Source of the DNA: Psammoneis japonica
Lineage: Eukaryota
DNA length: 20,000 nucleotides
Direction of reading: 5' to 3'
NCBI GenBank assembly: GCA_008632985.1
Contig: QPGO01000243.1
Location: 52,430-72,429, forward strand
The notes beneath the pieces were generated by a model, which had not been told where the DNA came from, ran no database searches, and worked only from the letters and a program-made list of their open reading frames with translations. Shown piece after piece: positions 1,017-20,000 of the stretch. A program made the position numbers and the translations under genes. The stretch's first letter is position 1, and every line of letters starts with the position of its first letter.

Positions 1017-1065
1017 AAACACAAACGAGAAACAAGCGCGAGCGATGGAGGGACGAAAACAAGAA

Positions 1066-1100
1066 CGATCGTCGATCGATCCGATCGATCCGATCGATCA
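1066..1100. repeat. Short CGAT(C) tandem repeat
   Basis: cgatcgtcgatcgatccgatcgatccgatcgatc, about six GATC cores in 35 bp. Confidence 0.8.
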
Positions 1101-1167
1101 AGAAAAAAGAAAAGAGAAACGACACAACATATTCGATCGCATCGCGAACCATTCAGGACTTGCCACA

Positions 1168-2527
1168 ATGTCTTGTCATCACGGTGATAAGGATAATCAT
1201 GGACAAGAGGAAGATACCAAGGTCGGCGGCATTCCCATGCGCAATCACGACGGGTCGGTGATGTTCAACAACAACAACGGACGACCCGTATACCGCAGTC
1301 AATACCTTTCGACGCACCCCTTAAAAAGCGATTGCAAGGAACGCATCGCACCAGGCAATGTGAAACTCACCTATGTCACTGGAGAGGGTGTGATTCGAAC
1401 CATGAATGAGGTGTTTGGACACGAAGGGTGGAGTACAGAAATTACAATGGAGCGTGTTGTGGTGAGTTTGTAGGAAAGGGCCGAAAAACGAGAACTCGAC
1501 ATGTTGATGTTGTACATCAGAGTATAAGCGTGTTCTGACTTTTTGTTTTGATGCCGCCATAAAGCAATGTGAACGCGACGATAAGGGACGTTGGGTGGTG
1601 GGATATCTCGCAACAGTACGTGTCACCCTGCTGAACGGCACGTCTCACGAGGATTGCGGGTGTGGAGAGGAAACAAACGAAAGCAAGATCAAGGCACACG
1701 ACAAGGCATTCAAATCGGCAGTCACGGATGCCATGAAGCGTGCAGCTCGTCACTTTGGAGAACGGCTTGGAAACGGTATGTTCAATAATGAACAAGACAC
1801 GTGTAAGATGATTTCATAGAGAACCGAAACCTCACTTCTTTTCATTTTACTTCTTCATGTGTTAAAGCTCTGTACGTGAAGGGTAGCGGCATTCGTTCAG
1901 CTCCAGTCAGCAACGCGCAAGCACTATCAGAGTTAGAACAGAAAGAGTCACGATACTTTTTCGGAGATCAGACAAATCTCGCAAGACGCGTCCCAAGAAG
2001 AGGAGACGAATGCAGGCTCGCCATTATCCAGCACGAACCAAAACAGAGCACCCAGTCATGACCAACAAGAAAACATTCCACCTCGAGTGCCACTGGGCCA
2101 CAATCGTAATTCGAGCGTCTCGCCGAGTACTGGTCAGCCAAGTACCCACGCCAACAGTCCGCAACAAGAAGGCATCCCACCTCGTGTTTCCTTGGGACCT
2201 TCCGATGCGCCACGTGATTCGAGAATTCCATCAAGTGCTGGTCAAATGGCACCACCATATGCGGACACGAGGACCGATCCGACTGGCGTTTCTGCCAACA
2301 TTGTAACTCCATCGGCACGTAGCAACCCAAACCAATTCATTTTTGCTTCCCAAGCGTATGGCTTGCCTGGAGCCCAACAGCAGCAGCAGCAGCACAGCTC
2401 TTCTCCTTCTCGTCGGGCACTTGGTGGTGGAACAAGTAGGGGGGCGTTGACAAGGAATAGTCCGACGCACTACGGCGGCACTAGCCCATCAAAGCGACCC
2501 CGAACCCAAGTCAACCCATACAAGTAA
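1168..2527 (+). CDS. RAD52: DNA repair/recombination protein Rad52 (Rad52/Rad22 family), 3 exons
   Basis: Exons 1168-1461, 1565-1775 and 1868-2527; introns GTGAGT..AAG 1462-1564 and GTATGT..AAG 1776-1867. Rad52 motifs: KLTYVTGEGVIRTMNEVFGHEGWS, ATVRVTLLNGTSHEDCGCG and KAFKSAVTDAMKRAARHFGERLGNALY. One frameshift near 1937-1981 is needed to join the low-complexity tail that ends at 2527. Confidence 0.92.
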
Positions 2528-2839
2528 CTCGAACAATTCTTAAAAGAACCAGAATCCACAAGTTTTAGACACTGTAATATCTTCTGAAGCTAGCTTGCTT
2601 TCAATACCAAGTCTCTATACTATTATTTTTAGTTTGTAGGCGCTAACCGCATTCTCTACACAACACACCCTCTCTCAATTGAAGCCTCTGCTCTTCAAAT
2701 AGGACGTATATAAAAGACACTCTCTAGTAGATTTATATATCAAAAGCGGCCTCGCTTCGAATACCCAGTCTATCTCTTATTCTTTACTGCGCTCTAAAGG
2801 TATTCTCCAACCACACAGACGACCATTGACAGAAATGCC

Positions 2840-4663
2840 TCACGCCTCTGATTTTATGACTTCACCACCACCCAAAGAACTCCCCTCTGCTGCCGCAAAG
2901 AACTCTTCCCAACCCTCGATGATTTCTCTTTGCTTTTCATCTTGACAACGCCTCAAGTTTAGACACTCTCGCAACAGATTCCCACTCACATGAGGAGGAA
3001 CCCGCGTGCAGCTCTGACACCACCCCGTCTTGGTGCAAATCTCCATTCCACACTGAACACTCGGAACCATGAGGCCGCATCGGACACACTCTTCACCGTC
3101 GGTGGGTTTATGAAAGGGCCCAAAGCGAGTCGCATTTCGGGCAATCCCCCCTCCCAGCACACTCTGTGCGGCCAAATGCCAATGCCCTGACGCATGTCCC
3201 ACAACTCGTCGCTGCGGCCCTGCATTTTGGTTGGGAATTCGCGCAAACGATCCAAACGAATCTCACCGGGAAAGTCCTTGGCCTTGCTCAGTCGCATGCG
3301 ATGCTCGTCTTCTCGTTCGAGCTGTCGACGCAAGTTGTGGAATCGGTTCTTGATGCCATTGTCGGTCCGTCCCGGAATCATCTTTGACATTTTGGCCCAG
3401 TGACTGCCAGTGGTGTTGTAGAGATGAAAAATCGTAGCGTCCTCTACAGGACTCCAGTCGGAAACCTTGAGCCGCGGATTCAAATGGTTGACATAACGCT
3501 CACGACATTGCTTTCCGGTGCGTTCCGGCATGGATTGAGCAACAATGGACCACTTCATGGGCATGCGCATGTTCTTGACGAGGCTCAGAAGAAGGGCGTC
3601 TTCTTCCTTGGTCCATGCTTTGGGTCCAGATTTGCGTTTCGCGGAAGCGCCAGAGCCTGGAGAACTTCCACGTTTGGTACCGGTAGCACTGGATACCGAT
3701 CCACCAGGAACACCACTCATAACTTGAGGATAGCCATAAGGAGGATGGTACGGGCCACCAGACGGCCCGTGATAGGGCGGGTATGTAGTCGGTGGCATGC
3801 CATATCCCGGCGGAGGTGCAGAATACATTGGTCCACCTGAAGATCCGGGTGCAGTTGGACCACCTCCATAGGGAGGAGGATAGGGCTGTTGAGCCATACC
3901 CATGCCCCTTGGACGACCACCCATGGCCGGAGGCATACCCTGCCACTGCTTTTGATCCGGCGGGGATCCTCCCTGCTGCTGCGGCGGCGGCGGTTCATTT
4001 GTAAAGGGCGGAAGTCTTGAAGGCGGGTGACCAGGGGAATGGCGGTCTTGAGGAACCATTCTCTGTTCCATGGCCGATGGTGACGGTGGTGCTTCCTGCT
4101 GCGGAGGGTCTTGGGGAGGAGGCTGTCGGCCCGGTGCGGTTTCGCCACTCTCACCAATCTTGACCCATTCGGTATCGTTGTCATCGTACTTGAGCAAGTG
4201 TTCCCCGGTGGCAGGATCGTATTGTTGAACCGTGCCCGCGTACCAGCTGTTGTCGACGGGCCAAAAGACACGAACCTTTTTTCCAATCATGCAATCCGCA
4301 CAGAAACTGATGAAAAACAGAGCAAAAGTTGAGTTTGTTATGAGATACTGCCGAACAGAGTCCATTACTTCTCAGCAAAGGAAGCGACATCATGAGCAGC
4401 ATTTTTAATCATAAGAAGGATGCCAACACAACATGATTTGTGTTGGATCGGCGAAGGTTACATGCTCGCGGCGGCACAACGGAAATCAATCACGTACAAT
4501 TTCCACATACGACGTACCGTGGTTTCACGCCGGGTGGCAGTCCAGGGATATGCACGTCCGGATCGTCGCATGCAAGCAAGGTGAGGCCTCTATTTTGACA
4601 TCCTGCACATGCATCAAGTGCCTGAGGAGGCACAGCGCTCTGACCAGCGGCGTCGCTCGCCAT
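2840..4663 (-). CDS. R2R3-Myb transcription factor with N-terminal Cys4 motif, Tudor-like domain and C-terminal Cys-rich domain
   Basis: Exon 1 4663-4518 (MASDAAG...CAGC...VKPR), intron 4517-4307 (GTACGT..CAG), exon 2 4306-2840. Tudor-like segment KKVRVFWPVDNSWYAGTVQQYDPATGEHLLKYDDNDTEWV. Myb repeats WTKEED..W..RTGKQCRERYVNHLNP and WSPVED..WAKMSKMIPGRTDNGIKNRF. A 1-nt frameshift near 3180 joins the 2840..3202 ORF (HLAAQSVLGGG...CVRC...C...C...WCQSC). Confidence 0.9.
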
Positions 4664-4924
4664 GGTGACGGTCTCGAAGGCAATGTTGCCGCTGAATGTG
4701 AATTTGGTGGGTGCTGTACCACGTTTCCGTTGAATTGAAGTTGAAAAACCGCATTCACGTTGAAATTTTCGTTGAAACTTTAGATACGAATAAAAATAAT
4801 AAACATATGTGACATTAAGATCTAAAGTATCTTTTTCACCCGTTGCATCGGGAAGTGCACACAAAAATCGGCAAGCAACGCAAACATGCCGATGATTATC
4901 CCGCTGATGCCGATGTCACCAAGA

Positions 4925-7334
4925 TTAATGCCTCTGATACCTCAGTCCGAGTAAGCGCCTGCTTGTGTCACCCTCAAAAGGCTTTCCATCCTGTCGCTCT
5001 AATTGGAACAAATAGCCGGCTTCCTGAATGCACACATACAGCTTGGTCCCGTCGGGACTAAACGCAACACCAGTGGTTTCGTCGTTTTTAAAGCGATCAT
5101 GAAACGCCTCAATCACTGTATAGAATCGGGTTCCATCGTACACGTACAGTCCAGGCGTTGCTCCTCCATCCTCGGTAAAGTAAATCAAATTGGAATGGCG
5201 AACGAGGTGGTCCGGGCCTGCTGTAAAACTACCCCCGCCCTCCAAAGCACCGAGACGAGTGCTTTGCACCGCATACGTTTGACGGTCCAGGTCCAAATGG
5301 AAAAGCTGCTTTGACTTTTTCGTGACAAACAAAAGCATCCCGTCGTCCGTCGTTATAATGCCTTCTGAAAACTGGTAATTTTCAAAGGCCGACCGATTTC
5401 CCAAATGACGAGACGGCGTCCAGCGAAAGGTATAGTTCTCGGGAAAGAGCTCCAAGTAGTCAATATCGCCATCTCCGTGCAGCATGGACCACGAAAAATT
5501 GGTAGCACTGCTTGGACTGAAACGACGGAGTGCTCCATACGCATGGTCCTCCGTAACAAAGAACCGTGGACGATCCGGGTCGCGCAAGTCGTAGGCAAAC
5601 GCTTCAAAACTACCACCACGCGCTTCCACAAGGTTGGTTTTTGCCGGTTTTCGCTGACCGGTAGGGTCCACCTGCCAACATTGACCACGAGTGTACTCTT
5701 CACAAGATATCCACGTGTCCCAGGGTGTTGCTCCGCCATTGCAATTGCGTGTCGTGCCAGTCAATCTTGCTGAATAGTTTCGAATGCGTCCTTGTGCGTC
5801 AAATTCCAACGCATACACTCCACCATTGCGATTGGGCTTTTCGGAATTGCTGACATAGGTCCATCCACCATCGTCCAGTTCAAACACGGCGGCGCCGTCG
5901 GGTTCGGCGTGAAAGTTGATGGACGACTGGGATTGAGTTGCGTCGGGGCTTGTGAATTTTACCCGTTGTCCGGACCGTGCGAGAACCTTGACGGTGAGAC
6001 CCGAAGAGACCAAGAGGCCTTCTTGCCGTGCCGTCAAGTTGCCAAGATCGTACGGTTTAGGAATCGCGGAATCAAACTCGGCGCATGTACTCGTTGACCA
6101 ATCGTAGACGCCGCTGCAAGGATAGTTGCTGTACCCGCTGTTTGTGCCATCAGCCATCCAATTCGTTGGTCCTACCGATACGAGAGAGAATCAGATAAAG
6201 ATGAGATTAGAAAATCGTTTCTGCGACTGAACAAAAACCAAGAGATAATCAAGCGTACCATTGACCCTGATTGCTCCTCCCGCGTCTCGTGTCGCTACAT
6301 TCATGGAAAAGCTTGAATCCGTAATCGTAAGGTGTGCCAACGATGATGGTTCACTGTTGATTGCACCGCCCTACGTGAAGCAAGAATGATCAAATGAGGA
6401 TCAAAAGCAAGAAAGCGCAAATACAATGCAAAAGTTGTGACTTACAAACTGCAGAGAATATCGTAGGCAAGTTACAAGAGCAAGATCAAAAGGTGAGGAG
6501 CATGAAAAAGGAGGATACGAGTACCCAAAAGACATGTGAGTTCTCTCTTTACCTTTGCTGTGTTTTTCGTAAAGGTCGAGCCATAGAGTTTCAGATTTCC
6601 TCGACTGTAGATTGCGCCACCTCCACCCTGGACGGCTTCGTTACCATCAAAGAGGCAATTTGAAACAATCAAACTAGTACCTACTTCCGTTTTGATTGCG
6701 GCTCCTCTCCAACCAACGGTCGACGCAACATTTCTGGTCAAGAGGTAGTGTTAGTTTCTTCTGATCGCAATACAACATAAAGACCCCACAAGCAAACTTA
6801 CCCTACAAATTCACAATTGCGCAAGAATTGCGTCTTGTACACTGACGGGGCAATCCGAACAGCAGACGCCGTTGCCTTTTCAAAGCGCATGCCGTCCATC
6901 ACAACTTCGGCGTTTGCTCCCATGATTCGAACGTGGTTTCCCTCGCCTTCCAATATGCACTTATCCGTTGACTTGACCTTTTCGCATGAAATAACAATCT
7001 GCTTCTTTATCATGAGAGTCGCATCTGGTGGCTTTATGACGTGAAAAGGACATAGAGTCAAGCTTTCTTGGGCTTGCCCAACCGCATTTACGAGTGCCGT
7101 CCACGATGAGTTAATCTGGGTACACGTGTCGTGCAAGGTTCGTTCGAGAAAGTCTCTCTTGGTTTTCTCTATTGCCTCTGCGAGTGGACGATTCCATTCT
7201 GTTACCATATCAAGGAATGGGTTGGAAGCTTGAGAAGAAACAATCAGCCTCATCATTGCTAGAAGCACGCCGTAGCAACTGGCACGGTGTCGGTGTCGAC
7301 TAGTGATTGCATCGCCGCCTTTGTTTTGCGTCAC
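4925..7334 (-). CDS. Multi-exon protein, probably secreted: parallel beta-helix (Pmp-like GGAI repeats) fused to a PhoX/DUF839 alkaline-phosphatase-like domain
   Basis: Exons about 7334(start uncertain; ATG at 7256)-6802, 6733-6553, 6448-6446 (microexon), 6370-6259 and 6171-4925, all with in-phase GT-AG junctions. Beta-helix repeats FDGNEAVQGGGGAI, FTKNTAKFGGAI and FSMNVATRDAGGAI. PhoX-type motifs PDGAAVF, YVSNSE, NCNGGATPWDTWISCEE, FEA, FTEDG and ETTGVAFSPDGTKLYVCIQ. Confidence 0.85.
6446..6448 (-). other. Putative 3-nt microexon (TTT, Phe)
   Basis: The - strand reads ...gtaacttgcctacgatattctctgcag|TTT|gtaagt..., a strong acceptor and a perfect donor 3 nt apart. This splits the interval into introns of 104 nt (6552-6449) and 75 nt (6445-6371). 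Confidence 0.7.
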
Positions 7335-7727
7335 GACTCTTACTCTTCAACAACAAATGCGAATGCAAAAGGCCTCCCTTTTGGACAAGGATAGCATAAG
7401 GTCTCTTCGATTCCAAACGAGTATCGAACGAAACCACTCCGAATCCTTTCGTGACGACCAATTTTGATCCCGTGCCAAAAATCAATGAAACACGACTGAA
7501 AAACGTTAGCACATGCAACATGCATGCATGTCTGACCTGGTTTGGGTTGCCGCGATCTTTTTCCACAACCACAACCCGGCCACCGTTTTATGCCAACGAG
7601 CGTTGGGAAATATGCAAGCTCGTTGAGTCCAATGCATTATCGCTTTGTTGCCATCGGTTCATTGATTTTTATTCTATATTCTCGTGTCGATTGCTTTTTG
7701 CATTATCGAAGTCACACGCGTGCGAAA

Positions 7728-8449
7728 ATGTCGGCAAATCATTCCGAAGCCAAGATACCGACAAACACTGCACCCAAGAACGACAAAATTACCATCCTTG
7801 GGTTTGGAAGTCTCTTGTCCGAAAAGAGCTCAAGGCTTACCTTTCCAGATTATCCAACTTTCGATTGGGTCGAATCCCACACTATCGACGTGTGTTTGGG
7901 CATCCTGCCGAGATCTTTTTCCAGCGTGGCATTGCAAACCTTGAAACTTTGGAAATCTCGTCGCTATCGGCTGAATACGATGAAGGAAACAAGGGTTTCG
8001 TTTGCTCTGTTTTCGAGGTTGAAAATGATGGCATGATGGAGGGAGGCATTCCAAGTATGGCTTTTTTGAAACGAGAAGAAGAATTCGACATTGCAACAGT
8101 TCCCTTTGTTGACAACGGTACGCCATCAGAAGGAATATTGTGCAGGCGATCATCTGATGAAGCTTATATAGAGAGATGGGGGCAGGAGCATTTCAATAAA
8201 CAGTATGGCCAATATGGCGTATCTACTATTTGGGGCTGGGAACGTAATTCAGGATTACGCCCTTGTGCCGTTTACTTGAGACACTGCGTTCTCGCAGCGA
8301 AATCTATGGGCACCGAATGCTACCAGTCCTTCCTCGACGAAACATTCTTGGTCGATCGAAAAACAACGATTCGTGACTATCTGGATCAGTTTCCCGACAT
8401 TATGAATACCCAACCACCTCCTGATCTGACAGATCGATACGGAGGGTAA
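7728..8449 (+). CDS. Gamma-glutamylcyclotransferase-like (GGCT fold) conserved protein
   Basis: ATG 7728 gives MSANHSEAK...ITILGFGSLLSEKSSRLTFPD. A 1-nt frameshift at about 7850 leads into LSNFRLGRIPHYRRVFGHP...FLKREEEF...LRPCAVYLRHCVLAA. The GFGSL loop and the downstream RE motif are GGCT-superfamily hallmarks. Confidence 0.75.
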
Positions 8450-9189
8450 CGAGTCATAAGCTCCTGTGATTGACACTACAAAAGCCAGTTGAAAAGGGTT
8501 CGATCGGGAGCTTTGGAATAGAGATTGCTTGTATTCATTATGTAACCTCTCCTCCTTGATCGTCTCTGACCAGTTGATCCCAAAACATTAGCTCTAGTCT
8601 GCGTATTTATGCGAACCTCTTTGCTGTAGGTGTCACTCTCTAGATGCTGTTTGAACGCGTCCATTGAAAATAGGCAGAGTCAATGTCAGGCCAGGAGATT
8701 TCTTTTGAAGATTCGAGTTTATGGCAATGGGCAACTTGCCGCGAGAACCAGAATCTCGTTTCTGCCTTTCCTGTTCCACGAAGATCGGCGGCTCCAGACT
8801 TGGAGACGGTGTTCCATAGTCGACGAGTTTTCTTTTGCTTTTGATGCCTGCTGCGTGTTCCTCCAGTCAATGGATAATACACTAGACCTAGAGTAGGGCC
8901 CTACCTGTAGAGGCCCTCTCTCTAGAGAAAGTAGTAGCTCTACTCTCTCTTGCTCTTACGGGGAGTAGCTACAGTAGTAGAGAGTGCTGTAGTTGCTTCA
9001 GTCCCGCGCCATCTGTCGCACGACTGAATGACAGTCCACAATAAACGTTAAATAGTGGTTAAAGTATTTATTCAGATTCCCAATCCGATCCGCGACCTTG
9101 ATCCTCCGCCATCAGCCATCACAAATTCTCTTTTTCATTTTTTTTCACCCGATGAGACACATTACATCGAGAAGTGACACGAATCTATA

Positions 9190-10664
9190 ATGAAAGGCTG
9201 TCTCCATCATTTGGTCTTGCTCCGGTCTTGCTCCTTATAACAGCCTCAGCCACGCACGCTGCAAAGAAGGTCTTCACTGTACCGTTCAAAGCTAGAGCAC
9301 TGGATTTTACCTATGGAAAGGACAAGGATGCGAAAACTGGCAACTGTGGCGAAGGCATCGTCGATGCTGTCTACATTAATGATAATCCTACCTGCTCTGC
9401 TGAGTGCGCTATTGCATACACAACACGTGGGGAGTGGGTTGAGTACATATTTGAATCCAACAATGATGTGCATGTCAATGTTGAGTTCTACTTTCCAGCA
9501 CCTCGAGGGGCCGCAAAATTCTTCTCAAGCTCAACGGCAGTGACCTGGAGTATTGAAAGGTCCTGGACAAGGCTTAGAAAAGTTCAAAAAACGAAAAACT
9601 CAAACTCCAGTTTTGTTCAAGCTGGAGTCAAGCACAAGCTTCTCGTAAAATTCCTCGACGATGATGTCCGTCTCTGCTCTATCGACGTGTCGTTGGCAAG
9701 AAGGGTGTTTGAGGTACCATTTGTTGCCGAACGAAACGACTTTTCCTATCGCAATGGTACAAAGGATGCAGGAGAATGGGTTGCGTATAGGTTCAAGTCC
9801 AGCGTCGATCAGACCATCGACATCTCTGCGCGCCTTTCAAGTGACAACTACCCTCCTCCCCGCCTCCCCATCAGGGTGAAGCTTGACGGCAAGAATGTGG
9901 GTGCATTCGAGGGACCAGACGGGGATCCTTGGGAGTATCAGAAACAAACGATATCCGGCATTGCCGTGAAGGGAGGAAAATGGCACACGCTTAAATTGAA
10001 ATTCATTACGGGTGGCGTTAACGTTGCTTCCGTCAGCGTGTTCCCGAAAAGAAGCCAAGATGAACTGACGTTGTTTGCCAAGTACGACTGGCAGAATGGA
10101 GCCAAAGATGTTAGCAACTCATTTTTAAAACACGACGGAGTTCTAGATAGTGACGACGTAACAGCCAAAGACGGAACACTCACTGTCGTTGGGTGTAAAG
10201 GCGTGGACCTTGGTTATATGGAAGAGCTTGACGAAGCATCTCTTTTCTTGTTGAGGTTCGAAGACGTCATTATTCAGAGTGAAGGAGAATACAGTGTCTT
10301 CGCAGGTGGAGGCGAGGATTGGTGGTGGGTGGGACTAGATAGCCGTAAATTGGCGTTTAGTGTTGGAGGTTTTGGTGGCCCTGAACTCTTGGTTGAGGTA
10401 GAAGGGCTTAAAAGCGGAGCCTCTGAAAGAGTTCAGTACAGCTTCGACAGCATTGAGTACCGCTTCAATGGAACAGCCGTTCCAAGGAAACGCCTTGCTA
10501 TCCGTTACAATGATGGTGAATGGGTGGAAGGTGGGTGGAAGCAGCCCGATTTGATGCGCACGCTCAGTTCCAGAGAGACAGTTCGAATCAACGACAGTTG
10601 TCGTGCTGATTGGGATGTGTTCAACGGGAGTGTTGGTACAGTTTACTTTTATGCTAACCTTTAA
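9190..10664 (+). CDS. Secreted protein with two tandem CBM6/CBM35-like carbohydrate-binding modules and an unassigned C-terminal beta-rich domain
   Basis: ATG 9190 plus one restored C gives the signal peptide MKGCLHHLVLLPVLLLITASATHA. The two modules read GEWVEYIF...HKLLVKFLDDDVRLCSIDV and GEWVAYRF...HTLKLKFITGGVNVASVSV. Three compensating 1-nt deletions (about 9492, 9553, 9611) scramble the middle of module 1. Confidence 0.7.
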
Positions 10665-10915
10665 TATCATAGCCTTCGTTATATTCAGCTGTCCTTGCCT
10701 AGTCTTCTAGTAGATACTTAGATAATCAAAGAAGAGGGTCAAAGCAATTGCATAATGGGACGAATGAGGTTGTACGTGTTCGTGGAATGGGATTTGAAGC
10801 ACATCCACGACTGAACTCGCGACTCAACCCAAAGCGCGACGACAGACGACAGAAGATGATGGTGTGCGCCGCAGTGTTCCATGTTGTGGTGCTTGCGACG
10901 GCAACTGTATTCTGA

Positions 10916-12508
10916 ATGGGTCATAGCAGCAGCCGCCGTCGTCTTCGTGATAGTTCGCTGAAGACGAAACACCCCGAAGAGCTTTGGCGGGACGCATTGA
11001 CCAGAGAGTTGGGAAATGGGGCGACAATTCAGATTGTTGGTATTTCTTCCGCAACACACACTGCTTTTGCACGTTCTGTTGCTGACGAGGGATCTGAGGT
11101 ATCACTTTACCAGATTGTTGAGAGTATCGTTGAAGAAAGAGGGTCTTTTATCCGTTCTGGTGGAGGAGCTTACTGTAACAATGAGATCTCAGACTTGACA
11201 GTCGACAGTGCAACTACTCACGGACATTTACCATCGGCAATTGAGCTCTTCGAGCTGGGCTCTGTATGGGTATTGACACAAATCGAAGGAAGGAATTGTC
11301 CTAGACGAGCTTCACTGAGTGATCAGTACGTGGTCCCAGATTGGGGTAGTACTACTATCAGGGTGCACTACAAACCGAAACGTTTTCCGGCTGCCTGCCA
11401 AGTTGAATGGGGCAAGTATTGTTCAGGGGTTAGTTTTTGCACAATCAGCGAATCTGATTATGTACAGTCAGAAAAGCGCAATACCGACATGCCATCCTCA
11501 TTTGGAGCTATTGTTTATGAGGTAAGAAGCCATTTACTTTGCGGTACGGTTTCTCGTACCTTCTCTTCGGAACTCACCATGACGAAATACATTGCCTTTG
11601 ACAAGGATTTTTCCCACGGCTATGTGATTTTGAATAAGCCATGCGGAGTACCGGCGCATGCAAATGTCAGCAATGGCGCTGAGAATGTGGTATCCAAATT
11701 CAAAGTGGCACTTCAATCACGGGACTATAGGTCAAAGAAAGGCGAAGACCTATATGTCGCATTGCCGCAGCGGCTCGACACGGAAACTTCAGGTCTTCTG
11801 GCAGTCGCTTTGAAAAAGGATTTCGCTTCTTACATGGCAAAAATGCTTGAAAAGAAAACTGAAACTCACTTGAAACAAGTTGAGGAATGCGACGGTGCCG
11901 CTGCTAAGGGCCTTGGATGTTTGGAAGCGAAAGCCGCCGCGAACGCTGATTTGAATGTAACGAAGAAATACCGCTGCCTCGTCTGCATCAAAAGTGGGGG
12001 GCGCAGTGATCTGTTGGAAGGACTGAAAGCTTCAGAAACGATCGTGACGCACTATCTAGACCCAGATACTTGTGTACCGAGAAAATTCAGGTCGCAACCA
12101 TCAACAGATGACTCTAGAGGATGGAAGGAGTGTCTGTTACGCTTGACAAAAGTCTCACCGTGGTTAGACCATTCTTTGAAGGACAAAGTACAATGGACAA
12201 CATCATGCGCAGAAAAGAATGACGGCTTTGTTGAACTTGAGGTCGATCTCCTCACTGGACGAACGCATCAGATCCGTGGCCAACTCGCTGCAATGGGGTA
12301 TCCCATCGTTGGCGATTCCTTGTATGGTGGTGGAGAGTGCAAATATGTGGATAGCAAGGGCAGAACATCCGACCGCATGGCATTACAATGCTGTGAACTC
12401 TCATTTCCTGAACCAAAGTGGAAGACAACTTCGAAGGGTGCCATGTCGTTGAAGCCGTCCATGAAGAAATGTGTTTTTCGCCTCGAAAGAGGTTGGTGGT
12501 GCGACTAG
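10916..12508 (+). CDS. RluA/RluD-family RNA pseudouridine synthase
   Basis: Motifs VILNKPCGVP, QRLDTETSGLL (catalytic Asp), KKYRCLV and LLTGRTHQIRGQLAAMGYPIVGDSLYG. Probable in-frame 84-nt intron 11522-11605 (GTAAGA..AAG), giving AIVYE|DFSHGY. The true start is uncertain. Confidence 0.9.
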   Translation: MGHSSSRRRLRDSSLKTKHPEELWRDALTRELGNGATIQIVGISSATHTAFARSVADEGSEVSLYQIVESIVEERGSFIRSGGGAYCNNEISDLTVDSATTHGHLPSAIELFELGSVWVLTQIEGRNCPRRASLSDQYVVPDWGSTTIRVHYKPKRFPAACQVEWGKYCSGVSFCTISESDYVQSEKRNTDMPSSFGAIVYEVRSHLLCGTVSRTFSSELTMTKYIAFDKDFSHGYVILNKPCGVPAHANVSNGAENVVSKFKVALQSRDYRSKKGEDLYVALPQRLDTETSGLLAVALKKDFASYMAKMLEKKTETHLKQVEECDGAAAKGLGCLEAKAAANADLNVTKKYRCLVCIKSGGRSDLLEGLKASETIVTHYLDPDTCVPRKFRSQPSTDDSRGWKECLLRLTKVSPWLDHSLKDKVQWTTSCAEKNDGFVELEVDLLTGRTHQIRGQLAAMGYPIVGDSLYGGGECKYVDSKGRTSDRMALQCCELSFPEPKWKTTSKGAMSLKPSMKKCVFRLERGWWCD

Positions 12509-13017
12509 GTCCGCGCGGCGGCTCTCAACGTGGATTCGGTAAAAACCCGCTCTCTTTCTCGAACGATACGATCGCTGAAACTCTCGAGAGGGTGACGCAT
12601 TCTCAAATCAATCAGCAATCGAATTGATGCATTGACGTGAAGTGCGTTCAGCAACTCCACCAGCTGACTTCTAACGGAACCGATTCAGCTCTCTAGAGAG
12701 TATTGTTAGTACTTCTAGTTATCTAGCTTCAAGCTCGTTCTAGATAGAGTAGGAATAGAGTTTTCTCTGGTAGGATAAAGTTTGCATTTATGTATGGTGG
12801 GTGCATGCTCCCACCAAGCAAGATCGTCACCAACCTGAGATACGACTCAAGACTCGTGACTGAAGGAAGTCGCACCCCGCAACCTATCGTCTCACACACA
12901 AATCGGTTGTCGGTTGTTGTTGAGGTTCTTGCCTTGTTGTAGCTGCGAGATCGACAGCAAAACGAAGCTAAAGCGCTTTTAAGTGATACAGCAGGAGTGC
13001 TATCTGATCTGTCAATA

Positions 13018-13619
13018 ATGACTAATAATTCGTTTCCGTCCCCCGAAGAACTCAGTGGCGTAAGTTCAAACCGGGATCCTGAGTAGCCATTTCTGGCTCA
13101 AATTGAAAATGAACACATCAGTCGTCGTGGGGCAATGCATCACTCAATTATTCAACAACTGTGTTTCTTCTTTTTGCTTGAAAGACCGTTCAAGGGACTC
13201 TCATTTACCTTGGGCTATACTTTTTCATCTTTATCCCATTTCAATCTTTTTCCAAGTTCTACCTAATCAATAAGAAACGAAAGGAGGCACGTGCAAAGGA
13301 AGGAAGCGAAAGGATCTCGTTCCGAGCTGTCAAGTATTACAATAGCAAGATGTAATTGCGCTGGTTGGTGACCGTACGGTGGGAAACTATATTGAGTTTG
13401 CAATTCTTTTCCTTCCGCTTTTGTGGATGCATGCGCTTTTTGTGGATCCATCGCAGTCACTGCTTATTTGTGTCGTTTATACCACGTCAAGGCTTTTTAT
13501 CCAATCCTGTTTCTCTACGGCGGGTACAGCACTTCTCTTTTGTTGAGCACTGCTCCAGGATACTTGACATATTTCTATCTGATGGTTCAGATACCTTCAA
13601 ATTCGCAATAGCTGGCTAA
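13018..13619 (+). CDS. MAPEG-family membrane protein (microsomal glutathione S-transferase-like), 2 exons
   Basis: Exon 1 13018-13059 (MTNNSFPSPEELSG), intron GTAAGT..AAG 13060-13184. Exon 2 reads TVQGTLIYLGLYFFIFIPFQ...GDRTVGNYIEFAILFLPLLWMHALF...VYTTSRxFYPILF...STAPGYLTYFYL after three 1-nt corrections (about 13348, 13491, 13593). It has four hydrophobic helices and the MAPEG R-x3-N-x2-E and R-x2-Y motifs. Confidence 0.75.
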
Positions 13620-13679
13620 CCTAGAGTCCACACCACAGCTGGACAAAACCAACCAGACGTGCCCGAATTGCATCATGAC

Positions 13680-15220
13680 TCATTTCGTTGCTTCTGCGCA
13701 AACGGCTTCTGCGGTTGAGAGAGCATAGTCAAGATCGGCAATTAAGTCTTCTTCTTGCTCCACGCCGACACTTATTCGAAGGAGACCCGGTGGACTAACT
13801 TGACGCGATGGAGGTTCAATGGATTGTCGGTGCTCAATGAGCGTTTCCGTCCCACCCAAGCTTGTTGCTCTCTTCATGACACCCACGGCTCCCGCAACTG
13901 CCATGGCCATGATTTCATTCTCCACCTCGATGCTCAGTACACCGCCATAACCCAAATTCATTTGTCTCGTGGCAATGTCATGTTGCGGGTGGCTTTCGAG
14001 TCCCGGGTAGTGGACAGCCGTAACAAGCAGGTGCTTGCTCAGATGTCGTGCCAGCGCCAATGCCGTCTGACACTGCCGTTCCAACCTAACATGTAACGTA
14101 CGTAATCCCCGCAATGTCACCACGAGTCAAACGACGAGCCTACAGCACCCATGCTGATTTGAAGTTGACGCAACACCGGCGCAAGACTTTTTCCACGGTC
14201 TGTCCAAGGAGATGTCGTAACCAATCCCAGCAAAACATCGGAATGCCCTCCCATATACTTTGTTGCGGCATGTACAGCGACATCTGCGCCAAGCTGTTAA
14301 TGTATTCGTAAGACAACGTTGGAGGGAAAAGCCAGCATGTCAAAAAAGGCGCAGGAAAATCTGAGACAAAAAGTTCACCGTGCATTATTTCTGCTCACCA
14401 TTAGTGGTTGCGTGATGCAAGGAGGTGTCATGGTTGCATCAACCACCGTCGTAATTTTCTTCTTGGAAGCAAATGTGCTAGCCACGTCGCAGACGGCGGC
14501 TATATCAATGACTTGACACCGCGGATTGGATGGCGATTCCATCCACAACACGAGGTCCTCCGACTCGTTCGCTTCTGAAATTGCTTTTCTATTGAGGAAT
14601 CAGTAGTGTAGTCAATAGCCTGATATACAATCCCATGACGAGAAAGGACGTCATCCAATACAGTGGGGATACCATGATACACGTCCTTTGGAATAATACC
14701 TTCACCGGAGATGTATGAGCAAGAAACACGGAAGATACCGCAGCCATTCCGGACGAAAACGCACAGTACAAGGTTTTGTCTCACTTTCTCTGCCACCATG
14801 ACACTCTAATTGACCAACGGTTGTTTCCAGTAAAAGACGAGTCGGATTATCCATGCGTGTGTATATCGAATCACCCTCGTGGTAAGGACCGTCGGGAGGC
14901 CGAGTATACGTTGTCGCCAAATGCAGCGGCGGTGCCTGAGGTGCGTTGTGTTCCGCCGTCGAAATGCCAGCGTGAGCCAAAATTGTATTCATACCGGAAG
15001 CTCTCGATGAAAGTTCGGCACTCGCACGTTCGTAAGCTCTCCTTCCAGCCTCTTCGGCAGATAAATTATTATTTGTGCCCCCACTGAGTGACGAGAAAGG
15101 CCTTTGCTGCCGACTACTACTGTGGGTGAACTCTGACTTTTCCGCCGCCAAGGCATTCCCAAGTCGCCTTCGTTGTTGAAGATCGCATGCAGCTTTCAAG
15201 ACTTTTCTATTCGTCGCCAT
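13680..15220 (-). CDS. Cys/Met metabolism PLP-dependent enzyme (cystathionine gamma-synthase/gamma-lyase family), probably mitochondrial
   Basis: Motifs YTRMDNPTR, AFSSGMAA, DVYHG, WMESPSNP, VVDAT, HAATKYMGGHSDVLLG (PLP lysine), LRGLRTLHVR, VHYPGLESHPQH, ATSLGGTETLIEH and LLRISVGVE. Intron 14398-14294 (GTGAGC..CAG). Several 1-nt frameshifts lie between 14120 and 14770. Confidence 0.9.
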
Positions 15221-15532
15221 TTCTATGTTTTCTGTTTTTAATCAACAAGACACAGCCAAGACGAGGACAAGAACCAGATTGATTTACTTTGCAACCCGCA
15301 AGCGCAACTTAAAACTGAAAACTGGCAAGCACCCGAAGCAGAAGATCTCGCAAAGTTTGCGCGTCTTGGTACAAAAAAGACGTTGGTTTCTACAACAGAG
15401 GGAAGATCTTTTCGCGCGAGATCCGTCGAATCGAAACCTGCTCCACTCGCCACTGTTCAGCTTCACATCATGCCAAATCCTTCACTGACATCTAAAATAG
15501 CGAATGGCCTTCTAAAATAATTTATGGTTTAT

Positions 15533-16256
15533 TTAGAGAGCAGCGAGAACATTCGGTGCCCAAGTATTTGAACTCTCCTCGGCGGCGGAAAAGTAATGCG
15601 TCACCTTTCCGTCGTCAGCAATCAAAGAGAAACGCTTCATCCTAACCATAACATCGGATTCGATGACAAGTCCCAGGGCTCTCGATAGTTCAGCATTGGC
15701 ATCTGATAGAAATCGGATTCCAGCATCAGCACCACCAGAGGACTCTCCCCAAGCCTGAGCCACAAAGAAACAAATTGTGAGCATCCACACAGAAAAAAGC
15801 CCCCACTTGGCGGGACCAACAAAAAGTCGCACAACCGTGTCAGCGCTCATACCTGCATAACATACGGGTCATTCGTGGCCAAGCAAATGGTTAGATCCAC
15901 ACCCTTTTCTTTGAGCTCATCTTGCGCCGTCATGAAGGAAGGTAAGTGAGACTTGGAGCATCCCGGGGTGAATGCGCCGGGCACTCCAAAGATGGCGACT
16001 TTCTTCCCCTTGATCAGTTCAACCAGATCCACGTCAATAGGCTTTTCATACCCAGCCTGTCCTTCCTTGAGAGTAACCGAAGGAAGTGCGTCGCCAACCT
16101 TGACTTCCGGCATGATTTCAGTAGCCGCGGATGCAGAGATCTTTGTCGATGACTGAGACGATACAAACGACTTTCGCGACTGAGCAAAAGGGAACCAAGC
16201 ACCGATGATATCAAAGCGAAAAGAGCAACAAGAGACGTAACACGGCTCGATAGCAT
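15533..16256 (-). CDS. PRDX5: Type II (Prx5-like) peroxiredoxin with a probable bipartite plastid presequence, 2 exons
   Basis: Active site FGVPGAFTPGCSKSHLP, then NDPYVMQ|AWG, FLSDANAEL and KRFSLIADDGKV. Intron 15852-15755 (GTATGA..CAG). Signal peptide MLSSRVTSLVALFALISSVLG with a 1-nt frameshift near 16195. Confidence 0.9.
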
Positions 16257-16379
16257 GGTCTTGGTAGTGTTGAGAGAATTTGTCCGTGATGTGTGATGTC
16301 GGACTGCGTTGATTGTGACTCATCCATCGCCATCATCGCTCGCGTTTTCGGTTTTTTCGAAAAACCTTTCCTTCCATCC

Positions 16380-16391
16380 GATGACGTCATC
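16380..16391. promoter_or_regulatory. Palindromic CRE/bZIP element GATGACGTCATC in the peroxiredoxin-parvulin bidirectional promoter
   Basis: A perfect 12-bp palindrome containing TGACGTCA, between divergent ATGs at 16256 and 16623. Confidence 0.45.
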
Positions 16392-16622
16392 AAAAAATCA
16401 AAAATACGTAGAATTGTCGTTAGCCCGTACGGTACGTTGCCCTTGGTACGAATCTACGGGTGTCAGCTGCCTCACAAATTCAACTCGAGAAAGCCAAACG
16501 AGAGGATTCAAGATATTCAACCTGATTTTGGTTCAACCTGCTTCCGACTGCCGACGACCGCATCCGCAAAATCATTGGTTGTTGCGCCTGTTAGAATTCA
16601 TTGCCGATAAAATCGTTTCAAA

Positions 16623-17099
16623 ATGAAGATTGTCTACCTTGTAGCTCTTGTGCTTTACGTTTCGCATCATGCGGTCGCCTTTGCGCCGTCGCGATCGGCA
16701 ACACCAACCTTTGCTCGATCCAATCTCGATACAAAGCGTCACAACTTTTTCGCAAACATTGGATCGATGATTAAAAACTTTGGCAGGGAGGTAACCGCAT
16801 CTCACATTCTAATTGGTCCCAAGACAATGGGAGAAGCGGAAGCCAAGGCGAAGCTTACGGAGCTCAAGGCTGAAATTGGTGACGACCCAGTCAAGTTTGC
16901 CGAAGCGGCCAAGGAATTCAGTACCTGTCCCAGCAGTAAGAAAGGTGGAGACCTCGGTACATTTGGTCCAGGTTTGATGGTGAAACAGTTTGACACAGTG
17001 TGTTGGGAAGAAGAAGTTGGAGTTGTTCATGGACCAATCAGCACGAACTTTGGGGAGCATCTCATTCTCATTACGAATCGCACGGGGGATGACAGATAG
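16623..17099 (+). CDS. ppiC: Parvulin (PpiC-type) peptidyl-prolyl cis-trans isomerase, plastid-targeted
   Basis: Motifs VTASHILI, FAEAAKEFSTCPSSKKGGDLGTFGPGLMVKQFD and GPISTNFGEHLI. Signal peptide followed by AVA-FAP (ASAFAP motif). Confidence 0.93.
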   Translation: MKIVYLVALVLYVSHHAVAFAPSRSATPTFARSNLDTKRHNFFANIGSMIKNFGREVTASHILIGPKTMGEAEAKAKLTELKAEIGDDPVKFAEAAKEFSTCPSSKKGGDLGTFGPGLMVKQFDTVCWEEEVGVVHGPISTNFGEHLILITNRTGDDR

Positions 17100-17899
17100 A
17101 TAGCTTGACCCCGTCGTGGTTTGAAATGGATGTGGTTGGCAATGAATAGAGAAGCGATAGATGATTGACAGCCTATTCTAAAAACGTAATACTGTCGTTT
17201 CTAGCATATCGCACGTTGGTCAGGCTCGAATGATGGTGTATCACTACAAGTTGACGCGACCGTCCCTAAGGCTAAAGTAGGGCCTACTGTAATTTGTAAT
17301 ATGCATTTTAACATCAAATATATACCGTATTTTTGATCAACAAACGCATACGCATAGAGTGATAAGCCTTGAAAAATCTTTCTCTGCAGAAGAGGAGGAT
17401 CGTACCCTTGGCAACTACAATGAAACTTACTGATGTAAGATATGCGAAGCCCAAACGGAGATCAAGCATCAATCACAAGCAGTCACCCCGACAGAATAGA
17501 TCGTGTCATTCTCTCGACGTACAGGACCATGATGATTTATGATTTTGTCTCCCACATACATGACGTCATTGCTTGTAGGCATTTCCCTCTTCGTGGCTCG
17601 ATTTTCCGCAAGAACTTTCTGTCACGTGCGACCGCTGCTGCGAGCCCTTCTTCGCTGAGTTTGCGGTGAGGTTGGTTTTCCTTTCCATCACCGGCAATTC
17701 TTGGAAGGGGCTTGGAAATCTGAAATTCGTGTTTTTTCCTCGACTCGTCGTGCGCAAGTGAACGAAGCGAGCGGCTCGGCATGCGGTAGCTCACTTCGTA
17801 ACCCATAGACGGAACCCGGACGCTGAATTGCTGTGACCCTCCGGAGCCAGAATTTTTTTACCACGACAAAACCACGGCCTCTGACGACCTCCTCTTTTG

Positions 17900-18364
17900 A
17901 TGTCACCGCTGTTCAACAAGAAGGTTACTCTCCCCGACACCACTTGCGCTCTTAACAACAGATGCCAAGAGCCTTGGTTTTTGGTGAGTCATGTCCTTTA
18001 TCGTGCGCTTTCCACGGGCTCAGGAATCATCGGCACCAACCCATTTTTTCCTCTTCAGCTCCCATTGCGGCTCGACCCATCACACCCTGCTCGAAGATGT
18101 GCACCTCAATTACCGTCAAAAGGAGCCCGTCACCACTGGCGCTTTTGATTGACCTCTCCTTCCTCCACCTGTTGCAGTGATGACAGAAGAATCGCCCACG
18201 GCATCGTCTCCCAAAACGCAAGCGAGATCCCCAGAGGAACCACTGCAAAGGTGTGCGGCTCCACCCTTGCATCTGCCGTGTGCCAGCAAAAGAAGGCCAT
18301 GTTGTGGAAGTGGCAATGCAAGCAACAACAACATGAGAGATGTGGTGTGTGGGCACCTTGTTGA
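17900..18364 (+). pseudogene. Decayed intron-containing gene of unknown function
   Basis: ATG 17900 ...EPWFL|GTGAGT (17984)...ttttttcctcttCAG (18058)|LPLRLDP...HWRF*LTSPSS...WAPC*. One in-frame TGA at 18146-18148. The spliced product has no Tyr and many Cys/His. Confidence 0.45.
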
Positions 18365-18449
18365 GAACTCTTGTGTGCCACCGGGACCCACACGCAATTT
18401 TGAGTGCATTGGACTCAATTTTTGCGTCCGTTGTTGGCTATTTTGATGT

Positions 18450-18930
18450 TGCTTCATTGATTTGGCTTGGCAAGGTGGCTGTCATGTTTGTTTGTTGTGT
18501 CAAGAAAAGCATGCTTGAATGTTTTGTTGCTGTGGCAAGCATTGTCATCGTCGCACAAAGTCGTTTTGTGTGTGCAGTGTTGTGGTTCTTGATCAAATGC
18601 CATTGGCCGTGTTGTTCACACCGGTGCTTTGTTGATTTGGCTTCATCCATTGGCTTTCACGGCTTGCATCATTTGTTTGTTGCATTGAGAAGAGCAGCCG
18701 AGTCTTTTGTTGTCATTGCGGGTGTTGTCGTCGTTGTGCAAAGTCGTTTCACACAGTGTTGTGGTTTTTGATCGCATGCCGTTTTGGCTGTGTCGTTTAC
18801 ACTTCGTTGATTTGGCTTCATCCATTGAATTTCATTGCTGGTGTCATTTGTTTATTTTGCACAGAAGAGCGACTGAGTGTTGCACTTCATGGCGGGCATT
18901 GTCGTCATCGTCAAAAAGTCGTTTTGCTGA
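18450..18930. repeat. Diverged tandem repeat, about 175-183 bp unit, about 2.7 copies
   Basis: gttgatttggcttcatccattg occurs at 18631 and 18806. aaagtcgttt occurs at about 18557, 18740 and 18915. Confidence 0.85.
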
Positions 18931-19074
18931 GCTTCTTTGTTGTGGTCGTGCATGCAACCACAAAGGATGACTTCCGTTTTTGTCATTGCCTTTAATGGCT
19001 TTGGTCAGAGGACACATTTGTCCCCTCAGCTTCTGTTGTAAAATCTAAGAAGCAATCCAGGAAGCCATTGGGGA

Positions 19075-19350
19075 ACTCCAGCTGTCGCATCGCATCGAAC
19101 ATCAGCTGTCAAACACTCCAGCTGCCGCATCGCATCGAATGCCATCCATCGCATCAGATCAAATGCTGCTCCTGCCAGCAGCTGACAAATGCTGCTGTCT
19201 GTCACATCGTGCCAAATGCCAGTGCTCTGGCTTTCGAATGCCAGCTGCCCTGTCGCACAGTGTCGAATGCCAGCTGCCCTGTCGTGCAGCATCGAATGCT
19301 GGCTGTTGGCTGTCACATCAAATGCCACCGGTGGCTGTCGAACACTGCCT
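19075..19350. repeat. Degenerate minisatellite built on (CA/TG)TCG and TCGAA(TG/CA)CCAGCTG units
   Basis: Two adjacent 29-bp copies at 19234-19262 and 19263-19291, plus several shorter variants such as ccagctgtcgcatcgcatcgaa. Confidence 0.85.
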
Positions 19351-19354
19351 GCCC

Positions 19355-20000
19355 AGCATTGTAGTCACAACCACGAAAAGCAGGAATGGCACACTTGAAA
19401 TCCTTCCAACGGCCACCTCCAGCACTCTCACGAGCATCGACATCAGCCGCCACCCACACAGCAGTCACCATTGTGGGGGTTTAAGTTGGTGATCCATTTC
19501 TCACCATTGCACCCATGCACGTCGCCATCCTCAGATTCTACACATGTGACAATCCCCAAATTTTGCATCTCCATGCACTGCGCTTCAGCTTCAATGGCAG
19601 CTTGCATGCACGGGGTGCCTTCTCAGTCGAATGCTTTCTTGATCAGGAGCACAATGTCACCTCTTGGACAAACAACACTTTTCCACCTGTTCAGCACCTC
19701 GAGTCTATCTTGTTCTGGCCGGTTCTGCTGAAGAAGAAACAATGTCCTATCTTCAACAGGTCTTTTTCTGGCTCTACGCTTTGCATCAGTTCGCCATTTG
19801 AGCGGGTTGTGAGCGCCGTCAAAAACGTGCATGGCTTCAATGCCGTTTTGTTTGTAAAGTCTGTTGTGACGCTGCACCAAAAGTTTTGCTGCTTGACCAA
19901 CAGGTGTCTTCGGTGAGGCATGCACTTGCCTTGCCGCTGTTGGGTCGAGGAGGATCTTGTAAAGAGGAATGGACACGTCAATTGCAACCGTTTCTCCTCT
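19355..20000 (-). pseudogene. Decayed XPG/FEN1/Exo1-family (PIN-like) 5' nuclease
   Basis: RGETVAIDVSIPL (N-domain), AMHVFDGAHNPLK, GTPCMQAAIEAEAQC (I-domain EAEAQ), VESEDGD and GCDY (19372-19361, after a frameshift at about 19460). In-frame TGA at 19625-19623. The 5' end is outside the window. Confidence 0.8.

Follow-up and report, generated by a model that had tools for sequence, protein, structure and literature searches.

Organization of the locus

The stretch of DNA analysed here (the window, 20,000 nt) ends within repeated sequence. Its terminal part has the following features:

17577 to 17806, no strand: single-copy flank, CpG-rich and TA-poor (contig depth 54.8; observed/expected (o/e) ratios TA 0.18, TG 0.87, CA 0.98 and CG 1.28)
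17807 to 20000, no strand: end of a multicopy element that continues past the end of the window (depth rise, 246 contigs, TG/CA excess, partial CpG loss)
18434 to 18975, plus strand: three diverged tandem units of ~175-189 bp (repeat families D1-D6, spacing 161-189; MAFFT alignment)
19075 to 19299, plus strand: short tandem units of 25-40 bp (TRF period 29 x2.3 at 19234-19299; families D4 and D7)
19446 to 20000, minus strand: FEN1-like nuclease pseudogene (N-terminus past the end of the window; frame stops after residue 185)
19623 to 19625, minus strand: in-frame TGA between the XPG_N and XPG_I domains (relatives carry E, K, G, Q, N, R or S in that column)

The extent of the element was defined with contigs of run X1. 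Their summed depth rises from 54.8 in the single-copy flank to ~400-1583 inside the element, and 246 contigs align at 80% likeness or more, 68 of them at 99% or more. Loose contig ends before 17807, 17822 and 17838 mark the repeat edge. A flank contig (record 2) covers 16630-17833 with one difference from the window. The tandem arrays account for ~770 of the 2194 bp of the element.

The frame of the nuclease gene was translated through its internal stop, written as X, for the domain search. Two Pfam domains are matched, XPG_N over residues 2-79 (nt 19764-19997; E 6.8e-8) and XPG_I over residues 128-174 (nt 19479-19619; E 1.7e-9), both above the curated cut-off, the XPG_I match spanning just 47 of 89 profile positions before the frame ends. 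A match to the FEN1 structure 5zod in the PDB (E 1.5e-6) gives an alignment that reaches human FEN1 residues 28-182. The gene is a pseudogene, as it has the in-frame TGA and its frame is devoid of the C-terminal part (H3TH region). The family comprises 29 representative relatives at E values of at most 1e-3; one member (P0031) is annotated from a diatom and a long one (P0012) features a CxC...CxH motif. A word index returned no relatives of the ORF and a single-protein scan of metagenome contigs found no relatives of the nuclease. An alignment scan of metagenome contigs yielded 80 loci, the best being 28-30% identical to the window gene and to family member P0002, and at most 37% to P0004. These loci are generic FEN1/XPG genes and were rejected as composition outgroups. 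Viral contigs gave one weak match of 30 residues (L001).

The element is probably a DNA transposon with its own FEN1/XPG-type nuclease, present here as a pseudogene. AcademX elements are said to encode a nuclease (PMC10045372). The element resembles these and the Harbinger/ISL2EU-type elements, whose second gene is XPG+SWIM, in bearing a nuclease with XPG_N and XPG_I domains that belongs to a small family. The one element end within the window shows no transposase, terminal repeats or target duplication. A search of 17000-20000 gave no inverted repeats, and there is no reverse transcriptase within the 20-kb stretch.

Composition of the element

Dinucleotide counting found 15 TA in 18001-20000 (TA o/e 0.12) and 23 TA in 8041-8460, exactly as counted by hand in the first-pass annotation. 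The pooled o/e ratios of 18001-20000 are 0.12 for TA, 1.84 for CA, 1.56 for TG and 0.67 for CG, versus 0.55, 1.16, 1.14 and 1.02, respectively, in the pooled host sequence (1-17500). The abundance of TG and CA reported earlier in the TA-poor region is thus confirmed. TA o/e is 0.07, 0.09, 0.15 and 0.19 in the four successive 500-bp segments of 18001-20000, while it varies between 0.20 and 0.88 in the rest of the window. Host segments of 2 kb have 45-95 TA (median 75), none having fewer than 45. The complete 17807-20000 segment has 19 TA in 2194 bp (TA o/e ~0.14). Its TpA/ApT index of 0.16 and its (CpA+TpG)/(ApC+GpT) index of 1.64 are both outside the host ranges of 0.40-0.81 and 1.06-1.37, respectively.

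Every NTAN context in the element shows TA loss, and its non-array segments are equally TA-poor (TA o/e 0.14, 0.15 and 0.20). AA, AT and TT are not depleted (AA o/e 1.33, TT 1.17) and the GC content is host-like, so GC-biased conversion was rejected as the sole cause. Avoidance of stop codons was also rejected as the cause of TA loss, since TGA and TCA are plentiful on direct reading.

TA loss had been described as starting abruptly near 17580, in coincidence with tandem arrays and decayed genes, and as bound to repeated DNA. The arrays and a decayed gene are indeed found within 17807-20000, and the depth rise and the 246 aligned contigs tie the deficit to repeated DNA. The start needs correction: TA loss begins at 17577, but the signature that is both TA-poor and TG/CA-rich begins only at ~17807-17838, off by ~230 bp. 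The intervening 17577-17806 segment has a 211-nt TA-free run without TG/CA excess. This run is unremarkable by itself because TA-free runs of ~200-310 nt occur also in host genes (e.g. 3109-3419). The adjacent intergenic segment 17100-17576 has a TA o/e of 0.87. The full signature coincides with the repeat and the flank is without it. Leakage of mutations into the unique flank was discarded, as the TG/CA excess is absent from 17577-17806.

A sharp boundary would also be expected if the mutations are older than the insertion of the element at its present site.

Differences between copies

Copies of the element were compared using contigs of one sample (X1, X2 and X3 are the same sample), based on the best-supported 40 of 502 variant rows; 26 variable sites among these 40 lie within the element and are called listed sites below. 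This copy has TG or CA where other copies have TA at 15 of the 26 listed sites, the TA depth fraction in the sister copies being 0.11-1.0; site 17986 is ambiguous, as its neighbour 17985 varies too. The listed sites include 10 G>A changes, 9 of them at TG, and 8 C>T changes, 6 of them at CA, where the baseline is 0.41 (p = 2.6e-4). A 5' T precedes 9 of 11 listed purine transitions and a 5' A none, and a 3' A follows 6 of 11 pyrimidine transitions. Transitions of the AA/AG class amount to 2 of 22 among the listed sites versus a baseline of ~27%. Interchange of TA with TG or CA is thus the main difference between copies, outweighing other substitutions among close copies at the listed sites.

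One X2 contig of single-copy depth (record 12) covers 17917-18856 and has 36 differences in ~940 nt. Fifteen of them can be attributed from the listed rows, 11 of which give TA where the window has TG or CA. This segment has 7 TA in the window and at least 18 in the contig. The letter found in the window is also present in X1 contigs at 22 of the 26 listed sites, with a summed depth of 133-1164 versus ~55 for single-copy DNA. It was found in no contig at the remaining 4 listed sites (18568, 18588, 19574 and 19875).

Tandem units within the window differ in a related manner. The 18434-18975 array has 29 YR-dinucleotide columns, 7 of which alternate between TG and CA without CG, while 9 pair CG with TG or CA. 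Units of the 19075-19299 array differ through CA/TG swaps and through exchange of CG with CA or TG; in family D7, CA..TG in one copy corresponds to TG..CA in the other.

Ordinary CpG decay is also at work in the element. CG o/e is 0.67 versus 1.02 in the host and CG is involved at 4 of the 26 listed sites. At 19574 the change is Val to Met and the CG state agrees with the consensus of the nuclease family. The caveat, made in the first-pass annotation, that the variable CA and TG sites were ancestrally CG applies to a minority (the 9 of 29 array columns, the 4 of 26 listed sites and Val to Met at 19574). CpG decay does not explain the whole signature, given the 15 of 26 listed sites at which TA is exchanged with TG or CA and the 7 array columns that alternate without CG. 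If all excess TG and CA were reverted to CG, TA o/e would still be ~0.18.

Direction of the change

The protein relatives of the nuclease provide an outgroup for the direction of the change, albeit a distant one (24-53% identity), so that losses of Tyr could be old and gradual instead of a burst. In the six columns where at least 25% of the relatives have Tyr, the window has Y, V, H, Q, C and C, coded by TAC, GTG, CAC, CAG, TGT and TGC. His, Cys or Gln is thus found at 4 of 6 Tyr columns in the window versus 10 of 93 over 15 relatives, none of which has more than 2 (binomial p = 0.0017). The Cys at Tyr-column position 111 is common to P0005, which is not Tyr-poor, and may be inherited. The window nuclease has the lowest Tyr content of 16 sequences (1.1%; the others pooled, 3.5%).

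Tandem units allow a comparison within the element. All 4 paralogue TA instances in scorable array columns fall on columns alternating between TG and CA, which hold 17 of the 54 instances (hypergeometric p = 0.0075). In one array column, where CG is absent, the window's three units read TG, TG and CA, and TA stands in the first two units of the paralogue. The coding strand of the nuclease gene shows CA as well as TG outcomes, which implies that both strands were hit.

The transition data are time-reversible, and polarity is carried by these small tests of 6 columns and 4 instances. Together with the abnormality of a nearly TA-free ancestor, the Tyr columns and the tandem units favour TA as the state that would be ancestral and changed to TG or CA in the lineage of this copy. 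A TA-poor state of the consensus or homologues, envisaged in the first-pass annotation as a refutation, is spoken against by TA in other copies at these sites and by Tyr in protein relatives at positions of His or Cys in this copy. The first-pass proposal of TA to TG or CA conversion on either strand is supported insofar as both statistical tests point to this direction, on both strands and in this copy's lineage, while the opposite, RIP-like polarity is only disfavoured.

Proposed process and competing explanations

17807-20000 is the end of a mobile element present in many copies and, according to the interpretation we favour, most TpA of this copy's lineage would have been turned by transitions into TpG (A to G in the top strand) or CpA (A to G in the bottom strand). 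The change would be TA-specific, hit the strands about equally and add to the CpG to TpG/CpA decay expected in methylated repeats. Through the two combined, both of the self-complementary YpR steps (CG and TA) would end up as TG and CA. The pattern suggests a burst-like, repeat-directed process acting at the DNA level. As its chemistry we prefer a putative enzyme that would deaminate adenine at 5'-TA-3' in duplex repeat DNA, the resulting hypoxanthine being read as G; an identical pattern would follow if the thymine of TpA were modified and then mispaired with G. Judged from sequence, conversion of TA to TG or CA in this copy by a TA-specific, repeat-directed process combined with CpG decay is, on balance, probable. 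The broader proposition is more tentative, possible though rather doubtful: that diatom-type algae have a repeat-directed hypermutation mirroring fungal RIP, with a putative enzyme acting on A (or T) at 5'-TA-3' that, with CpG decay, erases CG and TA steps and wrecks transposon genes (Tyr to His or Cys).

The opposite polarity accounts for part of the data. This copy would then be near-ancestral and the others would have been hit by a RIP-like C to T change at CpA that makes TpA. The pairwise pattern, CA or TG in the window and TA in other copies, is exactly the product of RIP, and changes from the window to other contigs are more often C>T plus G>A than A>G plus T>C (220 versus 150 in X1, 111 versus 30 in X2). 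The candidate enzyme would be the RID-related DNMT4; Hoguin et al. 2023 (PMC9998398) report it from 31 of 60 diatom species and give its function as unknown. This reading, however, demands an ancestor with TA o/e of at most 0.14 and CA/TG of 1.6-1.8, beyond anything in the host sequence, and leaves unexplained both His, Cys and Gln at Tyr columns and the paralogue TA instances on TG/CA-alternating columns. The RIP indices of the window are also opposite to those of RIPped DNA (TpA/ApT 0.16). We consider it unlikely. Still less likely is an intrinsic or selected composition, in which a lineage that long avoided TA (by foreign origin, selection against UA/TA or TA-free units) underwent CpG decay without any special mutation. 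The tandem array would multiply whatever its unit held over ~770 of 2194 bp and CpG decay is demonstrable (CG 0.67, the 9 of 29 array columns and Val to Met at 19574), but the non-array segments are as TA-poor, TA in sister copies at 15 of 26 listed sites shows that the TA-poor state is not fixed in the family, and TA o/e would stay at ~0.18 with all excess TG and CA returned to CG.

Two further explanations have a very low probability. Error-prone repair synthesis of a Pol-eta-like type (WA to WG) could be drawn to the T:G mismatches that deamination of 5mC leaves in a methylated repeat, for which the A:T phase of immunoglobulin hypermutation is a model. It would bring together TA loss and CpG decay in one element and affect both strands. 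The Pol eta spectrum should strike AA too; nevertheless the AA/AG class is rare among listed sites (2 of 22 versus ~27%) and AA (1.33) and TT (1.17) are undepleted, rendering this mechanism improbable. Most improbable is an artefact in which the assembly miscalls TA as TG or CA (e.g. due to modified bases and a long-read base-caller) and the TA contigs are true. The 4 of 26 listed sites at which no contig bears the window's letter speak for it, the X2 contig of single-copy-like depth could be the present locus itself, and an artefact would likewise mimic the Tyr to His/Cys signal. Base-calling error, a possibility left open in the first-pass annotation, is however unlikely in view of the contigs that share the letter of the window at 22 of 26 listed sites (summed depth 133-1164 versus ~55, although the assembly may have been built from these very runs), of the 68 of 246 X1 contigs that are at least 99% alike, and of the sparse differences in the host part.

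If the favoured conversion of TA to TG or CA is true, DNA-level removal of TpA by A to G or T to C would represent a chemistry different from cytosine-based systems, to which, to our knowledge, all context-specific repeat hypermutation belongs (RIP, CpG decay, APOBEC). It would imply that the nuclear DNA of a major group of marine primary producers is subject to an adenine deaminase or a thymine-modifying activity unknown so far, and such organisms might supply enzymes for editing adenine in DNA. A low TpA/ApT combined with high CpA+TpG would then be a new compositional marker to date and find silenced repeats. If the polarity is RIP-like instead, the data would reveal a RIP-type process outside fungi and a candidate function for the orphan diatom DNMT4. 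A search of full-text literature found no description of a TA-removing or RIP-like process in diatoms.

Relation to known systems

Fungal RIP changes C to T at CpA and creates TpA. The process proposed here resembles it in producing context-specific transitions on repeated DNA, on both strands, that dominate the divergence of close copies and break genes. The element, by its depth (54.8 to ~400-1583), is repeated DNA as RIP targets are. In contrast to the TpA excess and CpA/TpG deficit of RIP, TpA is destroyed here and CpA/TpG made, with inverted indices (TpA/ApT 0.16; 1.64), and the attacked base would be A or T. Decay of methylated CpG by 5mC deamination in silenced transposons yields the same shift from CG to TG/CA as in the element, and the same TG/CA sink, but is powerless to remove TA.

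ADAR and TadA/ADAT-type deaminases prefer a 5' U/T neighbour. The net A to G change with a 5' T at 9 of 11 listed purine transitions is alike. The substrate of ADAR/TadA-type enzymes is RNA, as in the hyperediting of retroelement RNA by ADAR, or ssDNA in the case of engineered editors, whereas the element here looks like a DNA transposon with both strands equally hit. C-to-U editing of LTR retrotransposons by APOBEC is reportedly an example of editing that became fixed in genomes. Enterobacterial VSP repair restores T:G mispairs to C:G, which depletes CTAG and turns TA words into CA and TG words. This repair bias has the same TA to CA/TG outcome, but it is bacterial, has a CTAGG-type context and operates genome-wide, while TA loss here extends to all NTAN contexts and is confined to the repeat.

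Composition and boundary of the element

The multicopy element closing the window is strongly depleted in TA. Its pooled observed/expected ratios (o/e) are 0.12 for TA, 1.84 for CA, 1.56 for TG and 0.67 for CG, against 0.55, 1.16, 1.14 and 1.02, respectively, in the host part (1-17500). In the final four 500-bp windows (18001-20000) TA o/e is 0.07, 0.09, 0.15 and 0.19; the other 500-bp windows range from 0.20 to 0.88. The hand counts of the first-pass annotation, 15 TA in 18001-20000 and 23 in 8041-8460, were exact on recount; host 2-kb windows hold a minimum of 45 TA (median 75). AA, AT and TT are not depleted (o/e 1.33, 0.93 and 1.17) and GC content is similar to that of the host, which marks the deficit as TpA-specific. 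Indices of the type used for fungal RIP place 17807-20000 outside the host range on both measures: TpA/ApT is 0.16 vs 0.40-0.81 across host windows, and (CpA+TpG)/(ApC+GpT) is 1.64 vs 1.06-1.37.

Contigs of three public runs from one sample were aligned to 16000-20000 at ≥80% likeness (246 contigs in set X1). Contig depth is single-copy (54.8) up to ~17740 and its sum reaches 594-1583 over 17742-18411. This rise, with loose contig ends before 17807, 17822 and 17838, places the element start at ~17807-17838 and shows that it extends past the window end; one unique contig stops at 17833. The abrupt change initially located near 17580 thus has two components: sequence is TA-poor from 17577, but the multicopy element and the TG/CA excess begin only at ~17807-17838. 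The features are:

1-17100, host genes: Rad52-like, Myb, PhoX-like, pseudouridine synthase, Cys/Met PLP enzyme, redoxin, parvulin
1003-1470, plus strand, ORF partially matching the Rad52/22 domain (E 1.3e-7)
17100-17576, AT-rich intergenic stretch on the parvulin downstream side, TA normal (o/e 0.87)
17540-17857, minus strand, ORF with no Pfam match
17577-17806, single-copy flank of 230 bp, TA-poor, CpG-rich (o/e 1.28), without TG/CA excess
18434-18975, three diverged tandem units of ~180 bp
19075-19299, short tandem units of 25-40 bp
19623-19625, minus strand, in-frame TGA in the nuclease gene
entering from beyond the window end, minus strand, FEN1-like nuclease gene with XPG_N and XPG_I domains

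The flank 17577-17806 is a different kind of sequence from the element. Its TA-free run of 211 nt is equalled in length within host genes. The GC-rich Myb-domain gene has a 310-nt TA-free run at 3109-3419 (TA o/e 0.20 in 3001-3500), so short TA-free runs occur also in host coding sequence.

Summed depth is ~2-4x higher over 17742-18813 (maximum 1583) than over the nuclease-gene part 18814-20000 (~310-540). Contig depth is no copy number; this excess in the left kilobase suggests shorter non-autonomous derivatives sharing the element terminus.

The nuclease gene

The TA-poor stretch coincides, as first noticed, with tandem arrays and gene decay; the decayed gene encodes a nuclease. Read through the TGA as X, its product matches XPG_N (E 6.8e-8), XPG_I (E 1.7e-9) and human FEN1 (E 1.5e-6). 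It is a pseudogene because the reading frame stops after residue 185. The family is small, with just 29 representative relatives at E≤1e-3 in an exhaustive HMMER search, one of them annotated 'Exonuclease 1' in the diatom Leptocylindrus danicus. The long relative P0012 features a CxC...CxH (SWIM-like) motif downstream of the nuclease core and has a conserved C-terminal region in common with P0026, also long. AcademX DNA transposons are described as carrying a nuclease (PMC10045372). The element, of which one end lies in the window, likewise has a nuclease gene and would fit a nuclease-carrying DNA transposon.

Divergence between copies

X1 contigs show 370 transition and 115 transversion places over the aligned stretch, flank included. 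Among the best 40 of 502 variant rows, 26 sites lie within the element. At 15 of these the window has TG or CA and other copies TA (site 17986 is ambiguous, as the adjacent 17985 varies too), accounting for 9/10 G>A changes at TG and 6/8 C>T changes at CA (baseline 0.41, p = 2.6e-4, listed rows). The depth share of the TA state at such sites is 0.11-1.0. Contig X2 record 12, of single-copy depth, spans 17917-18856 with 36 differences from the window; 15 are assignable from the listed rows and 11 of them give TA for window TG/CA. TA numbers 7 in this interval of the window and at least 18 in the contig. From these site counts and contig differences, TA<->TG/CA is the main axis of divergence within the element family.

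Miscalled TG/CA letters in the window copy are an unlikely cause, since X1 contigs carry the window's letter at 22/26 listed sites (summed depths 133-1164), although none does at the other 4. The runs, of unrecorded platform, may be the assembly's own data. Pol-eta-type WA mutagenesis would also remove TA; it is disfavoured because AA is spared in the window data, and the AA/AG class makes up only 2/22 listed transitions.

G precedes TA (position -2 on the A->G strand) at 9/15 mutated sites vs 10/38 strand-readings of surviving TAs. This excess (Fisher p = 0.03, small numbers) may reflect a weak extra GTA preference of the mutation process.

Direction of change

Transitions are reversible, so the copy differences fit A->G at TpA or the opposite direction. 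The polarity originally proposed, TA->TG/CA, is moderately favoured on a base of one window, one sample and the best 40 of 502 variant rows. The changes may have been made in place, as a repeat-targeted defence, or in an ancestral copy that was inserted here afterwards. A RIP-like C->T at CpA in other copies, leaving the window copy nearer the ancestor, is equally compatible with those differences, and is kept alive by the RID-related DNMT4, of unknown function, that Hoguin et al. 2023 (PMC9998398) report in diatoms. It demands, however, an ancestor with TA o/e ≤0.14. A full-text literature search found no description of RIP in diatoms, nor of TA->TG/CA mutation of repeats.

Protein relatives served as outgroup: 17/29 were aligned with the window gene and 15 counted after removal of two short rows. 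Six columns have Tyr in ≥25% of relatives; the window has Y, V, H, Q, C and C (codons TAC, GTG, CAC, CAG, TGT and TGC). His, Cys or Gln thus occupies 4/6 in the window and 10/93 in relatives (binomial p = 0.0017), no single relative having more than 2. Tyr content of the window nuclease (1.1%) is the lowest of 16 sequences (3.5% in the others pooled), and two motif positions that are Tyr in human FEN1 are His and Cys. The Cys at position 111 may be inherited, being also found in P0005, a relative that is not Tyr-poor.

Alignment of the three-unit array gives 29 columns with YR-family dinucleotides exclusively, 7 alternating TG/CA without CG. All 4 scorable TA sites of the paralogue lie on TG/CA-alternating columns, which account for 17 of 54 TG/CA instances (p = 0.0075). 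In one such column two paralogue units carry TA, against TG, TG and CA in the three units of the window copy. The fewest steps are needed if the ancestral unit had TA and either strand was mutated in the window copy.

A CG origin of the variable CA/TG sites, considered at the outset, holds in part: 9/29 array columns pair CG with TG/CA and 4/26 listed sites involve CG (three TG->CG, one CG->CA), but 15/26 involve TA. The same outgroup logic confirms that ordinary CpG decay is also present in the element: at 19574 all covering contigs have Val, the family consensus (11/14), and the window has Met via CG->TG.

The TA->TG/CA polarity would imply that a DNA-level process specific for TA changes A->G (equivalently T->C) alike on both strands of the element family, superimposed on CpG decay. 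The preferred candidate chemistry is adenine deamination at 5'-TA-3'; alternatively, the thymine of TpA might be modified so that it pairs wrongly with G. TadA/ADAT/ADAR-type enzymes favour a 5' U/T neighbour.

Observations in the host part

Low-complexity CGAT/AAGAAAA repeats lie at 1066-1119, beside the partial Rad52/22 ORF. All covering contigs differ from the window at 16075, 16128, 16279, 16314, 16365 and 16973. Difference clusters at 16165-16229 and 16586-16629 have about half depth (36.7 of 74.7 and 34.3 of 76.2, respectively), suggestive of a second allele or haplotype.
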